From positions 1,637-65,636 of the forward strand of contig JAFAAL010000030.1 of assembly GCA_023426575.1 (NCBI GenBank): DNA of 64,000 nucleotides, read 5' to 3'. Origin of the DNA: Bacillota bacterium (lineage in GTDB: Bacteria; Bacillota; Clostridia; Saccharofermentanales; DTU023). The translations under genes were made by a program, and so were the position numbers. Positions 35,953 to 49,530 of this stretch are shown here, piece after piece. Each line of letters starts with the position of its first letter. Positions within the stretch are counted from its first letter, which is position 1. A model generated the notes under the pieces. That model searched no databases. It was not told the origin of the DNA and saw nothing but the letters and a program-made list of their open reading frames with translations.

Positions 35953-35984
35953 GCGCTGCTGGCGAGTCCACTCGAGTTCTCGTC

Positions 35985-36029
35985 GCGATCATTCTGATCG
36001 CCATCATGCGCGTTCGTCGCAGAAACTAA
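35985..36029 (+). pseudogene. Remnant of a second GlsB/YeaQ gene (last ~15 codons only)
   Basis: The segment gcgatcattctgatcgccatcatgcgcgttcgtcgcagaaactaa encodes AIILIAIMRVRRRN*. The intact gene 3' end encodes AIILIAVMRMIRRH*. About 35 of 45 nt are identical by eye. Confidence 0.45.
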
Positions 36030-36068
36030 TAGAGTCAGTAAGCCAGCTGTCGTCATAGGCAGCTTTGA

Positions 36069-36110
36069 GTCAGGGGAGAGGCCACAGGCCCCTCCCCTGA
36101 CTTCCTTCTG
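36069..36110 (+). terminator. Intrinsic terminator marking the left edge of the low-GC island
   Basis: GTCAGGGGAG-12 nt loop-CTCCCCTGAC followed by TTCCTTCTG. Confidence 0.65.
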
Positions 36111-36136
36111 ATTCAGCTCAAAGAGATGCCGCAGTA

Positions 36137-37822
36137 TTGGCAGAATGGAGACATACGCTGAAACTCTTGCTTAATTACATCTTATCACGTTATAAGCGCG
36201 ATCTTTTTATTCGCTCTTTACTGTCAATCATCATTGGCCTAAGTTCTGCTGCACTCGTATATAGTAATAAGTTGCTTTTCGATCACATCGGACGACCTAT
36301 TGTAGCTAAAAAACTATTCTATGATGTATCCATTTTTTGTGTGATACAAGTATCCGCAATACTTATTCAGTCTGTGAATAATAGAGTTAACGACTTGGGC
36401 GCAAGCAAAATAAAAAGTGATTTAGAACAAGTCTTATATCAAAAGCAGCTCAGCCTCTCACTTGAAACACTGGAAACACCTGATACACATACCTCTATCA
36501 TGTTAGCTAGAAACTATGGCATAGATGCAGTATTTTCAACCATAAATAATCTCCTATCTTTATTGAATAGCCTTATTGGCATAACATCTATTCTGTATAT
36601 TTCCATTAGCATAACAACTTCAATGTTATCGGTTATTCTCATAATACCTATTCTTTCATTATATTTGAACACTGTTGTGGATAGGAAACTGGATAAAAAT
36701 CGTGAGACTACGGCTAAACTTAAAAGAGAGCAATCATATATCAATTCTCTGGCCTTGAGTCCACAAAATAGTAGAGAGATAAAAAGTTATCTAGCCGAAG
36801 CTTTCTTCATTAATAAGCTGAGGGCTGTATTATCAAATATATTCGAAAATGAGCGCGAGCAATTTTTAACCCAAGAAAAAATGAGAATTACTCTGGCACT
36901 CTTGGAATTTATAGCTGAATTATACATAATTATGGTAGCAGTAGTACAATCCGTCTCTGATGATATGCCCTTTGGAACAATTACCATGTTTATTGCTGCC
37001 ACTCAAAGCATTAGGGCACATATTAATAGCATCTTCGTCAATTTAAGGGATATAAATCAAAACAGACTGTTCAGTAGATATTTCTTTGATCTTTTACAAC
37101 TTAATTCAGAGCAAGAAACAGGTTCACTATGCCCGCACATCCATTCTATAACGATTGATAATTTAAGTTTTACATACCCAGGAACGACCAAGAAAGTAAT
37201 AAAGAATGTAAATCTAGAACTATTTAGTGGTGACAGAATACTTCTGATCGGACCCAATGGAGTCGGAAAAAGTACTTTAGTTAAACTTTTGGCTGGACTT
37301 TACCATACATACGAGGGCTCAATAAAAATAAACGGTATAGATCTCAGAGATATCTCTATCGAGAGTTACAGAAAGAAAGTCTCTGTGTTCTTCCAGGATT
37401 ATACTAATTTTGATTTAAGCATAGAGGAAAACACATATTTTGACAGTCACATTTCAGAAGCTCAAATGAATAAGATGCGCAACTTACATGCTGAGCTTGA
37501 TCTGCAAAGAAAAATTAAAGAAAAAAACATTAAACACGGCACCCGTTTGGGGTACTGGGATGGAAGCATTGTTTTTTCTGGAGGAGAAGCTCAACGAATA
37601 GCTATAGCACGCTGTTTAGCAAAACAGGCAGACTTTTATATTTTTGATGAGATCACCTCAGCGCAGGACTCAATATCGAGGCGGAATCTCTTTAGATCAG
37701 TTTTAGTTCCTGCAGATGACATAAGGATTATGATAACCCACAATCAAGAGTTAGCATCTAAATACGCGACAAAAGTTTTTAGAATAAAAAATGGTGAGAT
37801 CTTTCCAGATTCTACACCATGA
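36137..37822 (+). CDS. ABC exporter, fused 6-TM domain plus ATPase (no C39 peptidase domain)
   Basis: 561 aa. TMD first (LFIRSLLSIIIGLSSAALVY...), then GPNGVGKSTLVKLLAG, FSGGEAQRIAIARCL and FYIFDE. TTG start; the first in-frame ATG is ~120 codons in. Convergent with the radical SAM operon. Confidence 0.8.
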   Translation: MAEWRHTLKLLLNYILSRYKRDLFIRSLLSIIIGLSSAALVYSNKLLFDHIGRPIVAKKLFYDVSIFCVIQVSAILIQSVNNRVNDLGASKIKSDLEQVLYQKQLSLSLETLETPDTHTSIMLARNYGIDAVFSTINNLLSLLNSLIGITSILYISISITTSMLSVILIIPILSLYLNTVVDRKLDKNRETTAKLKREQSYINSLALSPQNSREIKSYLAEAFFINKLRAVLSNIFENEREQFLTQEKMRITLALLEFIAELYIIMVAVVQSVSDDMPFGTITMFIAATQSIRAHINSIFVNLRDINQNRLFSRYFFDLLQLNSEQETGSLCPHIHSITIDNLSFTYPGTTKKVIKNVNLELFSGDRILLIGPNGVGKSTLVKLLAGLYHTYEGSIKINGIDLRDISIESYRKKVSVFFQDYTNFDLSIEENTYFDSHISEAQMNKMRNLHAELDLQRKIKEKNIKHGTRLGYWDGSIVFSGGEAQRIAIARCLAKQADFYIFDEITSAQDSISRRNLFRSVLVPADDIRIMITHNQELASKYATKVFRIKNGEIFPDSTP

Positions 37823-37903
37823 AGCTGCCCCCTATCGCTAAAATTGCTGAACAAGCCATCTCATACCCAAAATGCTAATGATACCGTGGATGCGGAGGTT
37901 CAT

Positions 37904-39019
37904 TTAGTGCTTAAAACACGCTCTACTTCTGAAATACGATAAAGATAGACCTATACAAATCCAAATCAAAGAAGCAATACCGTGAAAAATTAAAGGATTC
38001 ATATGTCCAGTCCCAAAAATTCTTATCCCTAAAATGCTCCTATCAATATCTAATCCATAGGAAAGCACACCCCCAGGCAAGAACATCATAAGCTGTCTCA
38101 ATCCCAGAAGAAACTTGGGCAAACTGCCTATAAGCCTAAAATACTGTGGCAGGAATATTATAGATAAAGCATAGAATAGAGAAATCGAAGCTGAACTAGC
38201 TGCTTGTGAAAAACATTGCGATAACGCTAGCTGGAAGAATATAAAGGAAAGAAAATCAATGAGCGCAACAAGAACAAACATAAGAATATAATCGATAAGG
38301 GAGGCCTTATAAGAGGCAGTTAAGATATTTATATGCGAGGCTGGATTATCTATATTGTTTAGGCCAATATGACCATAAATCCAGAGAGTAGAAATATATA
38401 CAATAATTGGAAGTATAAAAAATACCAACCCAAAAATCAACTGAGTTAAGAGCTTCACAGGAAAGAGTTTCTGTTTAATCCTTTCTGCCCCGGATAGAAT
38501 TTTCCTGCAATGTATAATATCGTATGTATATCCAGAGGCAAAAACAAATGGTGAAACAATGAACATCCACTTGAGAAGAATGAAGAAGTTCTTTGTAATA
38601 TCTGCCAGCTGTGGATCATGAAACTCGGACAACTCACTAATTCTCTGCTCAAATTTGATCTTGCATTTAGGATCTTTTCTAGATGAGATCGTTTTGTTCT
38701 CCTGGCAGACGCTAGACTTCAACTTATTTAATAGCTGCAGGTCATTAAACTGGTCTATATAAGACGTTAAACAGTAGTATTTACTCCTGTTTTCAGGCCT
38801 CAAATGAAATGCCATATCGTGATTACTAATGTATTCATCCGCCTCCAAGCTTTTCTCAACATTAAGACTTTGGCCTATGTTAGGGCATGGAGCACTATAG
38901 CCTGTAAATTTGATTTCTCTAGAAGTTTTGATGGCAAGATAAGTGGAAATGGCAGAAATCAAAATCAAAAACGCTATTGCGAAATAATTAAATGTCTTCT
39001 TAACTTCTATTAGAAACAT
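37904..39019 (-). CDS. ABC-2-like permease paralog 2 (polytopic membrane protein)
   Basis: 371 aa: N-terminal TM helix, a ~130-aa extracytoplasmic segment, then ~5 TM helices. This is the same architecture as 41452..42558 and shares its KILS..R..K segment (HCRKILSGAERIKQKL vs MRMKKILSNTRRGLKKL). Last gene of the operon, 17 nt after the rSAM stop. Confidence 0.55.
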   Translation of the reverse strand: MFLIEVKKTFNYFAIAFLILISAISTYLAIKTSREIKFTGYSAPCPNIGQSLNVEKSLEADEYISNHDMAFHLRPENRSKYYCLTSYIDQFNDLQLLNKLKSSVCQENKTISSRKDPKCKIKFEQRISELSEFHDPQLADITKNFFILLKWMFIVSPFVFASGYTYDIIHCRKILSGAERIKQKLFPVKLLTQLIFGLVFFILPIIVYISTLWIYGHIGLNNIDNPASHINILTASYKASLIDYILMFVLVALIDFLSFIFFQLALSQCFSQAASSASISLFYALSIIFLPQYFRLIGSLPKFLLGLRQLMMFLPGGVLSYGLDIDRSILGIRIFGTGHMNPLIFHGIASLIWICIGLSLSYFRSRACFKH

Positions 39020-39036
39020 TGTATTCTCGTATCCTT

Positions 39037-40590
39037 CTACGCTCTAATTAAGTTGTTGAGTTTCATCAATTCATCTGGGTTATTCTCCAGGATTTCATGA
39101 TATAACATAAGACATTCTTTGACATGCTCCCTTTCAGAAGTGCAAAAATGTCTTTTTTTATCGAGATTAAATCCTTCATCAGTATATGAAGACGTATAAC
39201 AAATCCCGCATAGTAAGTTTGCCCAACATTTTGAGCAGTCTTCTTTTGAAGCATTTGCATAATCCTGCACGTATTTTTCCCTTATCAACTCGATATCGAA
39301 TCCTCTATCCACATGTCCGATAGAGGGAGAATCTCCGATTCTTTCGCAAACCTTAAAATCCCCATTCACAGTTACGTAAAGACGTCTAACACCAGGCACA
39401 CAACAACCATTAAATGGGATCATATTGCTGACGGAACAATCAAGACATAGTCTGCGATGAATGATATCAAGCATCTGAATCACTGCATTATGGTTTATTG
39501 AATTTATTGAACTTGATATACGAAGCATATCCTGTGATTTAAGCCACTCAGTTATCGGATTTAAGAAGACTGCATTTCCTTCACTATCAATAGTCAAATT
39601 CAAGTCACTAAGAATTTCCTCATCCTCATCCACACTCCCTTCGTTTGGCAGTGTCAAATCGATGCTGCTATTAATTGAAAAAGAAATATTCTTATAGAAC
39701 TCAGCAATTTTTTCCAACGAACTCGTCCGATATGGCGGCGCAAACACACCATTAATTGATATACCCTCTAATCCCTTTTCCCTATATGCATCAGTAATAA
39801 GCTCATAGCCTCGCATACAATCGTCAAAAGAGCCTCTTCCATCACAGTATATTCTCCAGCTGTCATGAATATCACGTGGACCATCTATACTGCATAGGAT
39901 ATTACAATTACCGAGACTCGCAAAGTACTGCGCCATTTCCTCATTCATTAAAGTCAGATTGGTAGTAAATGAATACCTTATGTCCTTGTCATAAATTTTA
40001 GCTTTTGCGTTACAATAGTCGATAATATTTCTCATCAAATTAAATTTGATAAGCGGTTCTCCTCCGTAAAAACTAATAGATAACTCTTTCCCAGAATGTG
40101 CGAATGCAAATTCCACTGCTTTAATAGCAGTTACAAGTAACATTTCTTCATTTCCAAAGTTTCTATTTGATTTGAACTCATCGTGATAAATACAATATTT
40201 GCAGCGCAGATTGCAACTCTCTGTAAGCTCCAAAATAAGTTGGGTAACATTATTCTCTAAAATCGATTCCAATTTCTCATAGTGAGATAGTGAATATAAA
40301 TCCTTTAATCCACCACCTAAGAGTAATCCTTCTTCAACTATAATACTGATAAATCCTCTTTCGAAGAGTCGATCTTTCAAAGTGGTCCAATTAGCGTCGA
40401 TCTTCTGTTCGCCACAACAATAAGCAAAAAACGCGCGCTCGTCATCTTCCTCAATGAGCACAACCTTACCGGAGCCACTATCATAGAAGTAGTCATTAGT
40501 TTTAGTGCTAAATAAAATCCCTTTAGACTTTAACTCCTCATCCGATAAACCTTCAAGTGCTATGAGGAAATGCGCTAGGCATGTATCCAT
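39037..40590 (-). CDS. Radical SAM / SPASM-domain peptide maturase candidate
   Basis: CNLRCKYC (CxxxCxxC, residues 126-133; nt 40192..40215), SFYGGEPL, and a C-terminal auxiliary-cluster region GCCVPGVRRLYVTVNGDFKVC ... CSKCWANLLCGIC ... HFC. A ~115-aa N-terminal extension precedes the core. 517 aa. Confidence 0.85.
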   Translation of the reverse strand: MDTCLAHFLIALEGLSDEELKSKGILFSTKTNDYFYDSGSGKVVLIEEDDERAFFAYCCGEQKIDANWTTLKDRLFERGFISIIVEEGLLLGGGLKDLYSLSHYEKLESILENNVTQLILELTESCNLRCKYCIYHDEFKSNRNFGNEEMLLVTAIKAVEFAFAHSGKELSISFYGGEPLIKFNLMRNIIDYCNAKAKIYDKDIRYSFTTNLTLMNEEMAQYFASLGNCNILCSIDGPRDIHDSWRIYCDGRGSFDDCMRGYELITDAYREKGLEGISINGVFAPPYRTSSLEKIAEFYKNISFSINSSIDLTLPNEGSVDEDEEILSDLNLTIDSEGNAVFLNPITEWLKSQDMLRISSSINSINHNAVIQMLDIIHRRLCLDCSVSNMIPFNGCCVPGVRRLYVTVNGDFKVCERIGDSPSIGHVDRGFDIELIREKYVQDYANASKEDCSKCWANLLCGICYTSSYTDEGFNLDKKRHFCTSEREHVKECLMLYHEILENNPDELMKLNNLIRA

Positions 40591-40591
40591 T

Positions 40592-41449
40592 TCAATTCTC
40601 CATTAAGTATACATACAAGTCTTCTAGGCGAGGGTTAACTTGTGTCGCATTTTTTATAGGCCTTGATGATACAAATCTTACTTTTGCATTGTGTGATTGA
40701 TCATTATAAACAGAGATTATCTTACAAGATTTAGCTAGAGTATCTACCTCTCTAGTATCCAAGCTAATCTCCCATACCATCTTAGAAAGACCTCTAAGGA
40801 GCTCATCTTCATAGCCCGAAGCAAGTATCTCCCCAGATCTGAGAAAGATAATCTGTTCAGCAATCTGCTCTATGTCAGGAACAATATGCGTAGAATATAT
40901 GACAATTCTTTGCTTGGAGAGTTGAGATATTAGATTCCTAAGATTAATCCTTTCCATGGGATCCAATCCAGAAGTTGGCTCATCTAATATAAGCACCTTA
41001 GGGTCATTTAACAGAGCCTGTATAAGACATAGACGTCTTTTCATTCCACCAGAAAACTCACCACACTTCTTATCCAAATGAGCCTTAAGATTACAAATCT
41101 CCGCAAGCATATCAATTCTATCATCCATAGATCTGCGTGATAGACCTTTAAGTTCCGCAAAATATCGCAAATAATCGATCGCCTTTAATTGAGGGTATAT
41201 ACAATCTTCTTGTGGAAGATAGCCCAAGTGCCTATAATACCCTGCACCTGCTTTGGCAATATTCTGCGTTCGCCACCTCACTTCACCCGCACTAGGCGCG
41301 CTAGCTGCAGCTAAAATATTGATAAGACTTGTCTTACCTGCACCATTAGGGCCTAATAAACCATATATACCTGAGACAAAATCAAAGCTGAACTCTTTAA
41401 CAGCTGTATTCTTTCTATATTTCTTAGAAACGTTCACTGCACTAAGCAT
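40592..41449 (-). CDS. ABC transporter ATP-binding protein (ABC-2 / immunity-type)
   Basis: ATG 2 nt after the permease stop, with GGGAGG upstream. GLLGPNGAGKTSLINILA, FSGGMKRRLCLIQAL and LILDEPTSGLD. The stop is 1 nt before the rSAM ATG. Confidence 0.85.
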   Translation of the reverse strand: MLSAVNVSKKYRKNTAVKEFSFDFVSGIYGLLGPNGAGKTSLINILAAASAPSAGEVRWRTQNIAKAGAGYYRHLGYLPQEDCIYPQLKAIDYLRYFAELKGLSRRSMDDRIDMLAEICNLKAHLDKKCGEFSGGMKRRLCLIQALLNDPKVLILDEPTSGLDPMERINLRNLISQLSKQRIVIYSTHIVPDIEQIAEQIIFLRSGEILASGYEDELLRGLSKMVWEISLDTREVDTLAKSCKIISVYNDQSHNAKVRFVSSRPIKNATQVNPRLEDLYVYLMEN

Positions 41450-41451
41450 AG

Positions 41452-42558
41452 TTAATGGACCTCCCATGCCCTAACAACTCTCGTAGTCAGGATAAGATTG
41501 CCTACTATTACAAATATTGCTACTAAAACGTGCTTAACGATCCTCAATATGATGTTGGCATGAGTCGAGATATTGGCACCCGTAAGTTCCTCTGGTATGT
41601 GTTTTACAACGGCCATAAGATTAGAGGGGAAGACTAATGGTAAGAAGTCAAATTGTGCTAAGAAAAATGGAATGATGATGATGATGAGAAGTCCCCCAAA
41701 CAAAGATTGCAGTGAAGAGGAAGAAACGGATGATATCATAACAATCGTTGAAGCAAGTACGAACATAGCAAGAGCATAAAAAAAGAGGGTTAATATAAAC
41801 AGCAATCCCATTGAAGGATCAACAATGTAGGGACGCATCATCACCGTTGATATTTTCTCTTTAAATAGGCTCGACTCATGTGACGAAAGCACATTTTTTA
41901 TGAAGTAAACCGCACAAGGAACGAGTGCACACAAAGAGAATATTCCTGATAGGACAAAAAATTTGTCCCATATAAGTTTCTTCAGTCCCCTCCGGGTATT
42001 ACTCAGTATTTTCTTCATGCGCATTGTTCTTTCTACAGTCATGATTGGAAATGACACAAGGACAAGCGCACCCAAAAGAAGATACATGAGAGGAAATTGG
42101 TTATCACCAAAAATGAGAAAAAAAGTCTCCCACCGTGTAGACGAAAAAAACCTCAAATCCTTGTAAAAATTATCCAGCATGCTGATCCTATCATTTGATA
42201 AGGTGTCAGTATTCGTGCTGTTGATCCCTGATAATTGTATTTCATCATAGATCTTATTACGGATCTGAGATGCCTCTACATATCGTTCAGATTTGATATT
42301 TTTTAATTTATGAATGGCTTCTTCTCTATTTTGTGCATCATTGAAAATCGGTGTAAGAGGATTCTCTTGCCTGATTTCACTTTCCTCATAAGCGCCTTCA
42401 ACCGATAAATAGTCGGACTCTTCAAGTAAATTAACATAATCCAAGTTCGCAAGAGCATGGTAGGCGTAAGCGGCTAAACAAAAGCTCAGTATAAAGAGCA
42501 CAACTCTTATTTTTGAATGAAATAAAATCCATAGCTCTTTTTTTCGACCGATATTCAT
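41452..42558 (-). CDS. ABC-2-like permease paralog 1
   Basis: 368 aa: TM1 (VVLFILSFCLAAYAY), an extracytoplasmic ~130 aa, then ~5 TM helices. Starts 8 nt after the precursor stop. Homologous by eye to the disrupted gene at 206..1292. Confidence 0.6.
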   Translation of the reverse strand: MNIGRKKELWILFHSKIRVVLFILSFCLAAYAYHALANLDYVNLLEESDYLSVEGAYEESEIRQENPLTPIFNDAQNREEAIHKLKNIKSERYVEASQIRNKIYDEIQLSGINSTNTDTLSNDRISMLDNFYKDLRFFSSTRWETFFLIFGDNQFPLMYLLLGALVLVSFPIMTVERTMRMKKILSNTRRGLKKLIWDKFFVLSGIFSLCALVPCAVYFIKNVLSSHESSLFKEKISTVMMRPYIVDPSMGLLFILTLFFYALAMFVLASTIVMISSVSSSSLQSLFGGLLIIIIIPFFLAQFDFLPLVFPSNLMAVVKHIPEELTGANISTHANIILRIVKHVLVAIFVIVGNLILTTRVVRAWEVH

Positions 42559-42566
42559 ATGCTAAT

Positions 42567-42773
42567 TTACTTTTTACGCGCTAAACCTAGATTGGCATCC
42601 TTATTATCGAAATTGCCTTCAAAACACGAACAAAAACAAGTTCCAAAAGTAACTGTAGACTTATTTCGCGTGCCTGAATATGCGCTGTTGGTATTACATA
42701 TACATCTGCACGTCCATATGAGACCTTGTGGTTCATTGTTTTCATTTGTAGCAATAGGTTTTAATATCTTCAT
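42567..42773 (-). CDS. Cys-rich 68-aa peptide, candidate RiPP precursor
   Basis: AGGAGG lies 7 nt upstream of the ATG. I re-translated it codon by codon: MKILKPIATNENNEPQGLIWTCRCICNTNSAYSGTRNKSTVTFGTCFCSCFEGNFDNKDANLGLARKK. Six Cys residues at 22/24/26 and 46/48/50. First gene of the operon containing the rSAM/SPASM enzyme. Confidence 0.65.
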   Translation of the reverse strand: MKILKPIATNENNEPQGLIWTCRCICNTNSAYSGTRNKSTVTFGTCFCSCFEGNFDNKDANLGLARKK

Positions 42774-42801
42774 AATTAAGCCTCCTTACTGAGTTGATTT
42801 G

Positions 42802-42830
42802 AATCTACACGATTTTTAAATATGTGTCAA
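42802..42830 (-). promoter_or_regulatory. Sigma-70-type promoter candidate for the precursor operon
   Basis: On the minus strand: TTGACA (42825-42830), a 17-nt spacer, then TAGATT (42802-42807). The predicted TSS is ~15-20 nt upstream of the RBS. Confidence 0.4.
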
Positions 42831-42894
42831 TATCTGTTGGAATTTCCTCATCATTCACTTCCTTACGATCTCCTTAGCATTTCCTATACTTTAA

Positions 42895-42931
42895 AAGTCA
42901 AAAAAGGGGGAACTGCGAACAGTTCCCCCTT
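42895..42931 (-). terminator. Intrinsic terminator of rplL (right edge of the island)
   Basis: 12-bp stem AAGGGGGAACTG/CAGTTCCCCCTT with a TTCG loop, then TTTTGACTTTT. Lies 24 nt after the rplL stop. Confidence 0.8.
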
Positions 42932-42955
42932 TGCTTCCATAAAAATTGAAAGATC

Positions 42956-48862: not shown

Positions 48863-49491
48863 AAGCTCCGGGGAAAGCAATACCCGAAAAGCGAATGCAA
48901 AGCGAGAAATCGCGAGGGCAGCGAAGCTTGACAAGTAGATATCTGAAGCTAGGAGACTGGTTATGAGACAAGACAAGTCTCGTGCGGAGGGAGCAGCAAG
49001 CACCCCGCAAGTGAAACACCAGCACGATGCCTGAATCAGGATCAATAGTGAAAGATTTAGAAAATTTGAATGACTGGGCCCAACAGCCGTTGAACTGAGA
49101 CAAAAACGGAATATGTCATGTGAGAATGAAGTGAAAATGAAATGATTACATACCATCCCATCCGTTACCTACCATGTTTCGACAACGCACTAGGCAAAGA
49201 TTTGAAAATCAGACGTCAGATGAGTATAAATCATAAAAGTCCAAAAGATTCAGAGATGAGACGAAAGCGCGTTGCAAGTCAGAATGATAAGTAGGCAAAA
49301 TCAATTGGTTTGTGTTCAACGAGAGAGGAAACGATCAGACGTAAACACTGTAAAACGCAAAATGGAAACCAAGATAGGAAAACGGCCAGAGCTTATCATC
49401 TGATACAAAAACTCTTAAAATTGCAAGAGCTAAAACGACAACTTCGCCGGAGCAGAGAGACCCTCGAGAAATCGAGGGTCTCTTCTTTTTG
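48863..49491 (+). ncRNA. Candidate ~630-nt noncoding RNA (family not recognised)
   Basis: Bracketed by the promoter candidate above and a strong plus-strand terminator. The plus strand is purine-rich and has no credible ORF on either strand. Several local hairpins are visible, including GCGA-GAAA-TCGC, GAGAC-7 nt-GTCTC, CCGTT-13 nt-AACGG and CTCTT-8 nt-AAGAG. Confidence 0.3.
49456..49491 (+). terminator. Strong intrinsic terminator (plus-strand orientation)
   Basis: 12-bp stem AGAGACCCTCGA/TCGAGGGTCTCT with a GAAA loop, followed by TCTTTTTG. On the minus strand there is no U-tract after the hairpin. Confidence 0.75.
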
Positions 49492-49530
49492 CCTCTCTTG
49501 AAAAGGCGCTCCTCTCGCCACAGGCCCATT

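Follow-up and report, generated by a model that had tools for sequence, protein, structure and literature searches.

Gene cluster and insertion site

The window, which is the whole 64,000-nucleotide stretch analysed (contig JAFAAL010000030.1), carried a cluster of genes for a radical SAM (rSAM) enzyme, a Cys-rich precursor peptide and ABC transporter components. The first-pass annotation had described a 517-aa radical SAM/SPASM enzyme at 39037–40590, and this ORF was found to be genuine, lying on the minus strand with an ATG start; on the plus strand the same interval contained no ORF, its translation being riddled with stops. The junctions were also as described: the ATPase ORF ended at 40592, with 1 nt between it and the rSAM ATG at 40590, and 17 nt separated the rSAM stop, ending at 39037, from the next start at 39019. 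The enzyme gene is embedded among transporter genes, flanked by an ATPase and putative divergent ABC-2-type permeases. That annotation had overlooked the precursor gene and had not recognised the cluster as an acquired island. The features of the locus were as follows.

35955–42891, no strand: inserted segment of ∼6.9 kb with the whole cluster (GC contrast, empty site in L095, junction alignment)
36137–37822, plus strand: fused TMD-NBD ABC exporter, 561 aa, lacking a peptidase domain, in convergent orientation to the operon (PF00005)
37904–39019, minus strand: permease 2, a 371-aa membrane protein, probable remote paralogue of permease 1 (homologues downstream of the rSAM gene in loci L002–L004)
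39037–40590, minus strand: RRE / radical SAM / SPASM enzyme, RumMC-family sactisynthase homologue (517-aa ORF, ATG start)
40592–41467, minus strand: ATPase of an ABC transporter, 291 aa when started at the first ATG (gene callers start at 41449, giving 285 aa; PF00005)
41452–42558, minus strand: permease 1, a 368-aa membrane protein, putatively of a divergent ABC-2 type (jackhmmer-linked relatives match ABC-2 Pfams)
42567–42773, minus strand: 68-aa precursor peptide MKILKPIATNENNEPQGLIWTCRCICNTNSAYSGTRNKSTVTFGTCFCSCFEGNFDNKDANLGLARKK, head of the operon (Shine-Dalgarno, NF035954, homologue in L004)
42802–42830, minus strand: sigma-70-like promoter candidate TTGACA-17-TAGATT (best-scoring site, 10/12 matches, consensus match only)
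42903–42932, minus strand: rplL intrinsic terminator, common to the empty site (13-bp stem, then a T run)

The island had a GC content of 37.1%, compared with 56.7% in the remaining window, and the low-GC part extended from about 36100 to 42890. The insertion point was located between a Transgly_assoc gene and rplL. An empty site was observed in the related MAG L095 (GCA_030537595.1), where Transgly_assoc, 82 bp and rplL follow one another and the flanks are conserved; the right border of the insertion lay just beyond the rplL terminator, which aligned to the intergenic hairpin of L095. Contigs encoding an identical RplL, from several independent samples, gave no empty site because all of them carried the island, so that the comparison came from the more distant L095. 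No tRNA, integrase, transposase or flanking direct repeat that would explain the insertion was found, no Rfam family was detected in the window at gathering thresholds, and neither a leader peptidase nor a regulator was found in the island. Both the difference in GC content and the empty site show the segment to be an insertion, and the six-gene cassette was most likely acquired horizontally into the 57% GC genome of an uncultured member of the Eubacteriales, a placement that comes from ThrRS relatives only.

Domain organization of the enzyme

The 517-aa protein comprised three domains.

40255–40590, minus strand: N-terminal RRE-like domain, residues 1–112 (AF2 secondary structure, conserved columns)
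39700–40233, minus strand: radical SAM core, residues ∼120–297, with CX3CX2C at Cys126/130/133 (PF04055 and motif)
39142–39405, minus strand: SPASM domain, residues 396–483, with a seven-Cys motif (exact regex match, TIGR04085)

The motif CNLRCKYC (CX3CX2C) was present at residues 126–133, as had been noted. In the type of profile search proposed earlier as a check, PF04055 matched residues 121–296 with 59.6 bits (cutoff 29.5, E = 5.5e-16) and TIGR04085 (SPASM) scored 32.7 bits (cutoff 27) over model positions 1–93 of 93; PF13186, the Pfam SPASM model, was sub-threshold (16.2 vs 21.5). The C-terminal strings quoted in the first pass, GCCVPGVRRLYVTVNGDFKVC and CSKCWANLLCGIC, were recovered, the latter reading Cx2Cx5Cx2C at Cys452/455/461/464, as was HFC ... 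KEC with Cys483 and Cys493. An exact regex match to CX13GX4CX36CX2CX5CX2CX18C was obtained for residues 396–483, and its Cys residues (the first at about 396–397, then C415, C452, C455, C461, C464 and C483) were invariant in 60 homologues. The catalytic Cys residues of the rSAM enzyme were all conserved in the alignment with homologues. The seven-Cys motif is predicted to hold two auxiliary [4Fe-4S] clusters. The window copy had Cys4 where the Logan copy P0001 had Trp4, the rest being identical.

The residues preceding the rSAM motif, in which the quoted string YFYDSGSGKVVLIEEDDERAFFAYCCGEQ was present at residues 34–62, had been suggested to be a peptide-recognition (RRE) domain. The AF2 model of the enzyme (pLDDT 90.1, pTM 0.89) gave a beta3-alpha3 fold with strands at residues 24–28, 33–37 and 43–46, followed by helices at 49–58, 68–77 and 80–86, collinear with the RRE of RumMC2. 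The same fold was obtained in full-length and domain-only models, with a pLDDT of 83–90 for the domain and about 84–96 along the beta3-alpha3 stretch. The suggestion was supported, and the lack of an RRE-like fold, which had been named as counter-evidence, was not what was observed. The domain carried a family-conserved strand motif, YFYD(T/S)G(T/S)GKV, and its conserved columns were F27, Y34, Y36, D37, G39, T40, K42 and V43. In a Foldseek search with the N-terminal domain, RRE domains led the ranking, none being individually significant (best E 0.31), and PqqD was the sole Pfam family matched by more than one slice of the domain, the matches being weak. In RumMC2 the RRE spans residues 16–94, and its deletion abolishes thioether formation (PMC8188230).

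The best match among solved structures was CteB, the SCIFF thioether maturase (5WGG/5WHY), both by sequence (1.2e-31) and by fold (E 5e-21, ∼500 columns). CteB is likewise built of an N-terminal RRE, a radical SAM core and a SPASM domain that binds a pair of auxiliary clusters, but the identity was only 21–23% and its type of substrate is different. CteB reads CX2CX5CX3C, and relative to it the enzyme is one residue shorter ahead of the last Cys. The Cx2Cx5Cx2C spacing called non-canonical in the first pass was real, but it is not unusual for the clade: of the 120 nearest homologues, 117 share it. The insertion reported at ∼300–370 likewise held only relative to CteB, in which the linker is about 28 aa shorter: the segment between the radical SAM core and SPASM, residues 270–395 (125 aa), corresponded to CteB 249–346 (97 aa). 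The same gap exists in RumMC2, with its radical SAM domain at 120–297 and SPASM at 394–481, so the 300–395 linker is a family feature and not an oddity.

Family placement

The note's proposal of a RiPP-modifying rSAM/SPASM maturase was supported, and the best family was that of the RumMC (ruminococcin C maturase) sactipeptide maturases, radical SAM enzymes that introduce cross-links into small antibacterial peptides. The top NCBIfam model was NF035951 (rSAM_RumMC) with 434.7 bits, residues 15–513 aligning to model positions 8–506 of 510, collinear end to end; this is below the equivalog cutoff of 720. The Cys motif published for RumMC1/2 (CX3CX2C plus the seven-Cys SPASM motif; PMC6779426 and PMC8188230) was matched exactly. 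Given the RumMC architecture and this published motif, the Cx2Cx5Cx2C spacing, the N-terminal extension and the linker are RumMC-family traits. Other maturase models scored below their cutoffs, namely CcpM (TIGR04068, 267.6 vs 500), QhpD (TIGR03906, 165.6 vs 453), PapB (NF047865, 142 vs 340) and the SCIFF maturase (TIGR03974, 124.9 vs 425). [quoted passage not shown]

By its domain architecture, motifs and family placement, the enzyme belongs with RumMC1 and RumMC2, the maturases of RumC1–5 in Ruminococcus (Mediterraneibacter) gnavus E1. They share the RRE / radical SAM / SPASM order with near-identical boundaries and an identical seven-Cys SPASM spacing, and in RumMC2 Cys130 and Cys133 have the same residue numbers and SPASM spans 394–481, compared with 396–483 here. 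It differs in scoring under the NF035951 cutoff and in being ∼36–37% identical to the enzyme of locus L008, which is paired with a near-RumC precursor; identity to the nearest relatives was 44–45%, and the best enzyme match in a GTDB genome scan was 41%. Homologues with the RumMC signature numbered at least 1397 at E ≤ 1e-10.

The precursor peptide

The 68-aa ORF at the head of the operon was preceded by the Shine-Dalgarno sequence AAGGAGG 7 nt upstream, and the promoter candidate sits between the rplL terminator and this site. The peptide contains Cys at positions 22, 24, 26, 46, 48 and 50, forming two CxCxC motifs. The only library family that matched it was that of the CA_C0660 putative sactipeptide bacteriocins (NF035954, ocin_CA_C0660), with 28.8 bits and E 9.5e-07 over the full length (1–65 vs 1–61 of 64). 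A homologue in L004, 48% identical and in the same operon position, matched the same family with 33.3 bits; both scores were well under the cutoff of 60.

A word-indexed search with the precursor returned nothing beyond one 99%-identical copy, and the precursor family was therefore mined from the flanks of the enzyme homologues, where 50 different precursors were found to be encoded beside RumMC-like genes. The leader of the present precursor, MKILKPIATNENNEP..., departs from the leader MK(L/V)(V/I)NPxGR that most of the mined relatives have. When the mixed precursor-family profile was compared with the PDB, the sole match was RumC (6T33, E 6.6e-4), and a profile of the precursors with 3+3 Cys alone also returned only 6T33, at a non-significant E of 3.2. 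The RumC sequence used for comparison was that of PDB entry 6T33.

RumC resembles the precursor in its length (63–68 aa), its two Cys clusters and the conserved C-terminal N..AN motif. In the alignment, C24, C26, C46 and C50 fell on the four donor Cys of RumC, with C22 and C48 being extra, and the RumC acceptors Asn35, Arg53 and Lys/Arg61 aligned with N37, K58 and R66, so that the donors and three of the four acceptor positions agreed. In contrast, RumC has four Cys (CxC + CxxxC) rather than six (CxCxC + CxCxC), and it is encoded in five copies rather than in one at the operon head. RumMC-signature enzymes were paired with precursors of 4 to 7 Cys, and odd Cys counts (2+3 and 3+2) occurred in 15 of the 50 precursors. 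C22 and C48 were invariant inside the 3+3 subgroup. The 68-aa precursor is most likely the substrate of the rSAM enzyme. Neither a literature match on the "six cysteines" of SCIFF nor gnavucin D, which is thurincin H-like, proved relevant.

Transporter genes

The ATPase matched PF00005 with 95.8 bits (E 4.3e-27), and its nearest NCBIfam models were the GldA, DrrA and lantibiotic-protection ABC ATPases, all under cutoff. Its counterparts in L002–L004, encoded immediately upstream of the rSAM gene, were 48–52% identical to it. Permeases 1 and 2 had no direct Pfam or NCBIfam match and were only 21–26% identical even to their nearest counterparts. By jackhmmer, permease 1 was linked to 35 relatives in RumMC-like loci, several of which matched PF12679, PF12698 or PF12730 above threshold. 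Direct pairwise comparison of the two permeases gave no similarity; the permease-1 profile reached permease-2 homologues at about 1e-8, and on this iterated profile alone the two are probably remote paralogues. One ATPase and two differing multi-pass membrane proteins around the maturase, the nearest ATPase models and the ABC-2 Pfams of the permease relatives are reminiscent of LanFEG-type or ABC-2 bacteriocin immunity transporters; they differ in that neither permease matches a curated family directly, and a role in immunity or export is putative.

The fused exporter matched PF00005 (1.8e-30) and was sub-threshold for ABC_membrane (22.5 bits vs cutoff 28). Its alignment to peptidase-containing exporters began at model position 152, and counterparts of 618–623 aa were found in L002 and L004. 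The gene order of the cassette was conserved in L002–L004. The RumC cluster also has ABC transport/immunity genes; unlike it, the present cluster lacks an M16 peptidase (RumPc) and a two-component regulator, its rSAM gene is wedged between ATPase and permease genes, and the lineage hosting it, an uncultured one of high GC within the Eubacteriales, gained the cluster as an island.

Proposed modification and alternative explanations

We consider it probable, at about 0.8, that the enzyme is a divergent but fairly ordinary RumMC-family sactisynthase, with the 68-aa peptide as its likely substrate, in a horizontally acquired cassette. For the C-alpha chemistry, the number and connectivity of the bridges and the transporter roles, we infer the following scheme. 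The N-terminal RRE (about residues 16–94) would dock the leader of the precursor, and the radical SAM core (Cys126/130/133) would cleave SAM reductively to the 5'-deoxyadenosyl radical, which would take an H atom from the acceptor residue of the core peptide. The SPASM domain, with its seven conserved Cys and two predicted auxiliary [4Fe-4S] clusters, would support the formation of the thioether from Cys sulfur to carbon. RumMC2 has three [4Fe-4S] clusters (11.5 Fe per protein) and abstracts the C-alpha H atom (PMC8188230). Homology with ruminococcin C predicts that a double-hairpin peptide is formed. The ATPase and the two permeases would most likely serve producer self-protection and/or export, and the convergent fused transporter is most likely the peptide exporter.

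Four to six thioethers are predicted, since four Cys align with the RumC donors and two are extra. The predicted RumC-type bridges are C26–S33, C24–N37, C50–K58 and C46–R66, with spacings of +7/+13/+8/+20 as in RumC, and C22 and C48 may give each hairpin a third nested bridge (about C22–V41 and C48–L62). Because acceptor residue types were poorly conserved over the precursor family, this bridge map is a register-based guess. A double hairpin of six sactionines, with three nested bridges for each CxCxC donor triplet, is possible, although we would not call it probable. A precedent by Cys pattern is StsA/StsB of Streptomyces sparsogenes, in which the CxCxC triplet of StsA forms the nested sactionines Cys2–Gly15, Cys4–Gly13 and Cys6–Gly11 in one hairpin (PMC10288494); that system differs in its single hairpin, Gly acceptors, discrete RRE protein and MftC-like enzyme clade. 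The same enzyme and substrate might instead give only the four RumC-type thioethers, leaving C22 and C48 free, joined in a hairpin-stapling disulfide or bound to metal. This outcome is likewise conceivable but tentative: only C24, C26, C46 and C50 align with RumC donors, and every characterised sactipeptide in the literature searched has at most four sactionines, whereas the invariance of C22 and C48 in the 3+3 subgroup and the three nested sactionines of the StsA triplet speak for further bridges. The many odd Cys counts in the family argue that paired disulfides are not the general role of the extra Cys.

The chemistry could also be of the CteB/PapB type, with the Cys sulfur joined to C-beta or C-gamma, which would make the product a ranthipeptide rather than a sactipeptide. 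In sequence, RumMC-type sactisynthases are reported to lie nearer to the ranthisynthases than to AlbA/ThnB (PMC10288494), and with CteB as the best solved structure, C-alpha and C-beta/gamma regiochemistry cannot be told apart by homology alone; the score under the RumMC equivalog cutoff points the same way. We nevertheless regard a ranthisynthase as unlikely, since RumMC was far ahead of PapB and the SCIFF maturase in score, the RumMC Cys spacing was exact, and the precursor resembles RumC in its Cys register and its C-terminal motif and matched neither the SCIFF nor the PapA type. It is quite improbable that the acquired island is silent or in decay, with its intact ORFs unexpressed or its enzyme inactive in the host. 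A 37% GC cassette in a 57% GC genome, without its own regulator or leader peptidase, would fit such a state, but none of the six ORFs is broken and their junctions are tight or overlap, a strong Shine-Dalgarno and a promoter-like site are present, the catalytic Cys are all conserved, and contigs of several independent samples have the same island beside an identical RplL. An anSME or another non-RiPP SPASM enzyme is hardly credible. Homologue P0012 (41% identical) bears the name "anaerobic sulfatase-maturating enzyme" in NCBI/UniRef, and anSME structures came after CteB in the fold search; against this stand the low anSME scores, alignments that begin at residue ∼118 and so do not include the N-terminal domain, and an island without a sulfatase gene in which a Cys-rich precursor and transporters adjoin the enzyme.

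Implications for the RumMC/RumC family

The enzyme is a further, divergent member of the known RumMC family. The peptide ruminococcin C has potent activity against clostridia, and work is under way on its family as an antibiotic scaffold. The RumMC equivalog cutoff and the Pfam SPASM model both miss the present enzyme, and at least one relative carries a wrong label as a sulfatase maturase. The clean empty-site comparison indicates that a complete bacteriocin cassette was transferred into a housekeeping locus without a recognisable mobility gene. The family is wider and more varied than its characterised members, with precursors of 4 to 7 Cys, those characterised in the literature searched having apparently 4 Cys only. 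As the cluster is compact, with six genes and one precursor, it lends itself to testing whether further Cys are turned into further thioethers. If so, six bridges would exceed the sactionine count of any sactipeptide described in the papers searched, and a RumMC-type enzyme would be capable of building a regular ladder processively, in steps of "donor −2 / acceptor +4".

Radical SAM enzyme and its family

The 517-codon ORF at 39037–40590 was present, on the minus strand and with an ATG start; read on the plus strand, the interval showed no open frame, with stops throughout. Every string quoted in the first-pass annotation was found, with CX3CX2C beginning at residue 126. Its intergenic distances were also exact: the ATPase ORF ended at 40592 and the enzyme ATG lay at 40590 (1 nt), and the enzyme stop ended at 39037 and the next ORF began at 39019 (17 nt). 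The C-terminal cysteines were at residues 396/397, 415, 452, 455, 461, 464, 483 and 493. The auxiliary-cluster motif had been called slightly non-canonical. The deviation was real, with one residue fewer before the last cluster-motif Cys than in CteB, the SCIFF thioether maturase, but it was not unusual. CX3CX2C and CX13GX4CX36CX2CX5CX2CX18C have been reported for the ruminococcin C (RumC) maturases RumMC1/2 (PMC6779426; PMC8188230). Because the enzyme matched the latter motif exactly (residues 396–483), and because Cx2Cx5Cx2C occurred in 117 of its 120 closest homologues, this spacing was regarded as the norm, and the published signature, of the RumMC clade. The full seven-Cys motif with exact spacing was found in 87 of the 120.

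In Pfam, only PF04055 (residues 121–296) and Fer4_12 were matched. The top NCBIfam model was NF035951, 'RumMC family radical SAM sactipeptide maturase', which aligned end to end (residues 15–513 against positions 8–506 of 510) with 434.7 bits, under its equivalog cutoff of 720 bits. The next scores were CcpM 267.6, QhpD 165.6, PapB 142, SCIFF maturase 124.9 and anSME 71.3, all far under those models' own cutoffs. When the C-terminal region was scanned alone, the SPASM model TIGR04085 was passed (32.7 bits, cutoff 27) and PF13186 was not (16.2 bits, cutoff 21.5). At E ≤ 1e-10, at least 1397 homologues were obtained, of which the closest beyond one identical cluster were 44–45% identical. A Clostridium puniceum protein (P0012, 41% identical) is labelled 'anaerobic sulfatase-maturating enzyme' in NCBI/UniRef; since the window enzyme scored so far under the anSME cutoffs, this name is likely a database mis-annotation.

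N-terminal domain and linker

The first-pass annotation had singled out a long N-terminal extension and an insertion at residues ~300–370. The extension was present, and the linker was ~28 residues longer than that of CteB; but because nearly all homologues were 495–550 aa long, the extension and the 300–395 linker were considered family traits rather than peculiarities of this enzyme. RumMC2 comprises an RRE (16–94), a radical SAM domain (120–297) and a SPASM domain (394–481), binds three [4Fe-4S] clusters and abstracts a C-alpha hydrogen, and its thioether formation is lost without residues 1–111 (PMC6779426; PMC8188230).

An AlphaFold2 model was built with 60 homologues from a near-identical Logan copy (P0001; W4, C4 in the window), giving a pLDDT of 90.1 and a pTM of 0.89. 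A Foldseek search against the PDB ranked CteB first (E 5e-21, ~500 columns), followed by anSME, ChlB, TigE, SuiB and SkfB. Confidence was reduced in linker region 320–370 (pLDDT 65–81), although the linker carries conserved family motifs. The predicted N-terminus consisted of strands 24–28, 33–37 and 43–46 followed by helices 49–58, 68–77 and 80–86, which is the RRE topology. Modelled alone (pLDDT 83), the N-terminal 112 residues gave no individually significant Foldseek match (best E 0.31); the top ranks, none significant, were almost all true RREs (TbiB1 with leader, CteB N-terminus, lasso B1, McbB, ThcOx, PbtF). Of 38 N-terminal slices scanned against Pfam, two matched PqqD (best E 0.0035), and no other family was matched by more than a single slice. 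The suggested RRE/PqqD-like domain was regarded as well supported as an RRE but not proven.

Precursor peptide and predicted bridges

A candidate substrate gene was located in the operon:

42567–42773, minus strand, upstream in the operon: precursor gene of 68 codons, preceded by AAGGAGG; product MKILKPIATNENNEPQGLIWTCRCICNTNSAYSGTRNKSTVTFGTCFCSCFEGNFDNKDANLGLARKK

The six-Cys peptide aligned along its entire length with NF035954 ('CA_C0660 family putative sactipeptide bacteriocin'), scoring 28.8 bits (cutoff 60). In L004, which encodes the second-closest relative of the enzyme, a 68-aa peptide 48% identical to it occupied the equivalent operon position; at L002 (ERZ27269871 k141_42744) and L003, an HMM search of the stretches of DNA covered found no precursor-like ORF. 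Iterated HMM mining over 80 named genome loci yielded 50 distinct precursors adjoining RumMC-like genes. Every one had two Cys clusters, of types 2+4 (15), 2+2 (10), 2+3 (10), 3+3 (9), 3+2 (5) and 2+5 (1). The 3+3 arrangement, CxCxC...CxCxC, was also present in Paenibacillus tuaregi, Clostridium acidisoli, Aedoeadaptatus coli and several MAGs. Against the PDB, a profile of 14 precursor representatives had a single match, ruminococcin C (6T33, E 6.6e-4); the 3+3 peptides alone again matched only 6T33, non-significantly (E 3.2). Seven 2+2 RumC-like precursor genes surrounded one RumMC-like gene in a Candidatus Aminicenantia MAG (L038, 499–9741), and a 3+2 precursor occurred in three tandem copies at L005 (9615–10604), indicating that the family extends beyond Bacillota and that its precursors are often multi-copy.

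Two small differences were seen between copies. Codon 4 of the enzyme gene (40579–40581) encodes Cys, and Trp in the otherwise identical P0001 (SRR26926588); a precursor variant, P0121, was 99% identical. These point to minor strain-level polymorphism.

RumC carries bridges Cys24–31, Cys22–35, Cys45–53 and Cys41–61, that is +7, +13, +8 and +20 (PMC6779426). Its CxC aligned to precursor C24/C26 and its CxxxC to C46/C50, leaving C22 and C48 as extra. Mapped by analogy, the predicted bridges would be C26–S33, C24–N37, C50–K58 and C46–R66. An Asn and two basic residues were conserved in the RumC acceptor columns; across the precursor family, acceptor residue types differed. Extending the 'donor –2 / acceptor +4' step predicts two further bridges, C22–V41 and C48–L62. 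Three nested sactionines from one CxCxC triplet in StsA provide a precedent (PMC10288494). In the literature searched, no sactipeptide with more than four sactionines was reported, and 'six thioether' reports concerned the ranthipeptide freyrasin. Because RumMC-type enzymes are nearer to ranthisynthases than to AlbA/ThnB (PMC10288494), C-alpha regiochemistry is the main chemical uncertainty.

Operon and transporters

The operon order was precursor, 368-aa membrane protein, ABC ATPase, radical SAM enzyme and 371-aa membrane protein; the enzyme gene was thus embedded among transporter genes, as first described. A sigma-70-like site (10/12 consensus matches) between the rplL terminator and the precursor SD is a candidate promoter. 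A 561-aa fused ABC exporter without a peptidase domain lay convergently on the opposite strand, and the island contained no protease or regulator gene. The ATPase resembled DrrA, GldA and lantibiotic-protection ATPases (NCBIfam). Neither membrane protein directly matched a curated family (Pfam, NCBIfam), nor did the two show direct pairwise similarity. An iterated profile of the 368-aa protein collected 35 relatives within RumMC-like loci, several of which matched ABC-2 permease Pfams above threshold, and reached homologues of the 371-aa protein at ~1e-8.

The ATPase–enzyme–permease order was kept in L002–L004, with identities of 48–52% for the ATPase, 44–45% for the enzyme and just 21–26% for the membrane proteins. 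P0002, at 44% identity the nearest relative of the enzyme, was encoded in the same ATPase–enzyme–permease–exporter cassette; L002 has a second ATPase/permease set.

Genomic island

GC content was 37.1% over 36000–42950 and 56.7% in the rest of the window. Two proteins titled 'MAG: Eubacteriales bacterium' shared 85% and 80% identity with the host ThrRS, and in the genome of one of them (GCA_030537595.1) the genes to either side ran in the same order as in the window: serS, thrS, Transgly_assoc / rplL, rplJ, rplA, rplK, nusG, secE, rpmG onward. There, the Transgly_assoc–rplL spacing was just 82 bp, and junction alignment placed the insertion at ~35955–42891 (~6.9 kb), against 13 bp. The whole cluster is a ~6.9-kb insertion between the Transgly_assoc gene and rplL. 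Neither a tRNA, integrase or transposase gene nor a flanking repeat was detected that would account for its arrival. All contigs with identical RplL, from several samples, carried the island.

A perfect GC-rich hairpin (36068–36102; 16-nt arms, 3-nt loop) lay close to the left insertion end on its inner side, in 150 bp of GC-rich sequence that precedes the low-GC exporter gene, and may be a terminator of host or island. The 64-kb window contained no tRNA gene or Rfam family at gathering threshold, yet it includes rpmG-secE-nusG-rplKAJL, thrS and serS, genes for which one might look for ribosomal-protein leaders or T-boxes. At 49000–49500, GC fell to 41% in a gene-free gap flanked by the Metallophos gene and the AlaX-like gene; the sRNA-model matches there were sub-threshold (~27 bits, gathering scores 39 and 114) and probably reflect a hairpin.

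Relation to ruminococcin C

The original interpretation was supported by the top rank of NF035951 and the RRE-like N-terminus, and the features called unusual were family norms. By homology, the system would work like that of ruminococcin C, and its enzyme and precursor fall into the broad families to which those of ruminococcin C belong; however, the enzyme fell under the NF035951 cutoff and the precursor under that of NF035954. Because both curated equivalog/subfamily cutoffs were missed, the system counts as a divergent member rather than an orthologue. More was learned from the six-Cys precursor and from the clean evidence of horizontal insertion.
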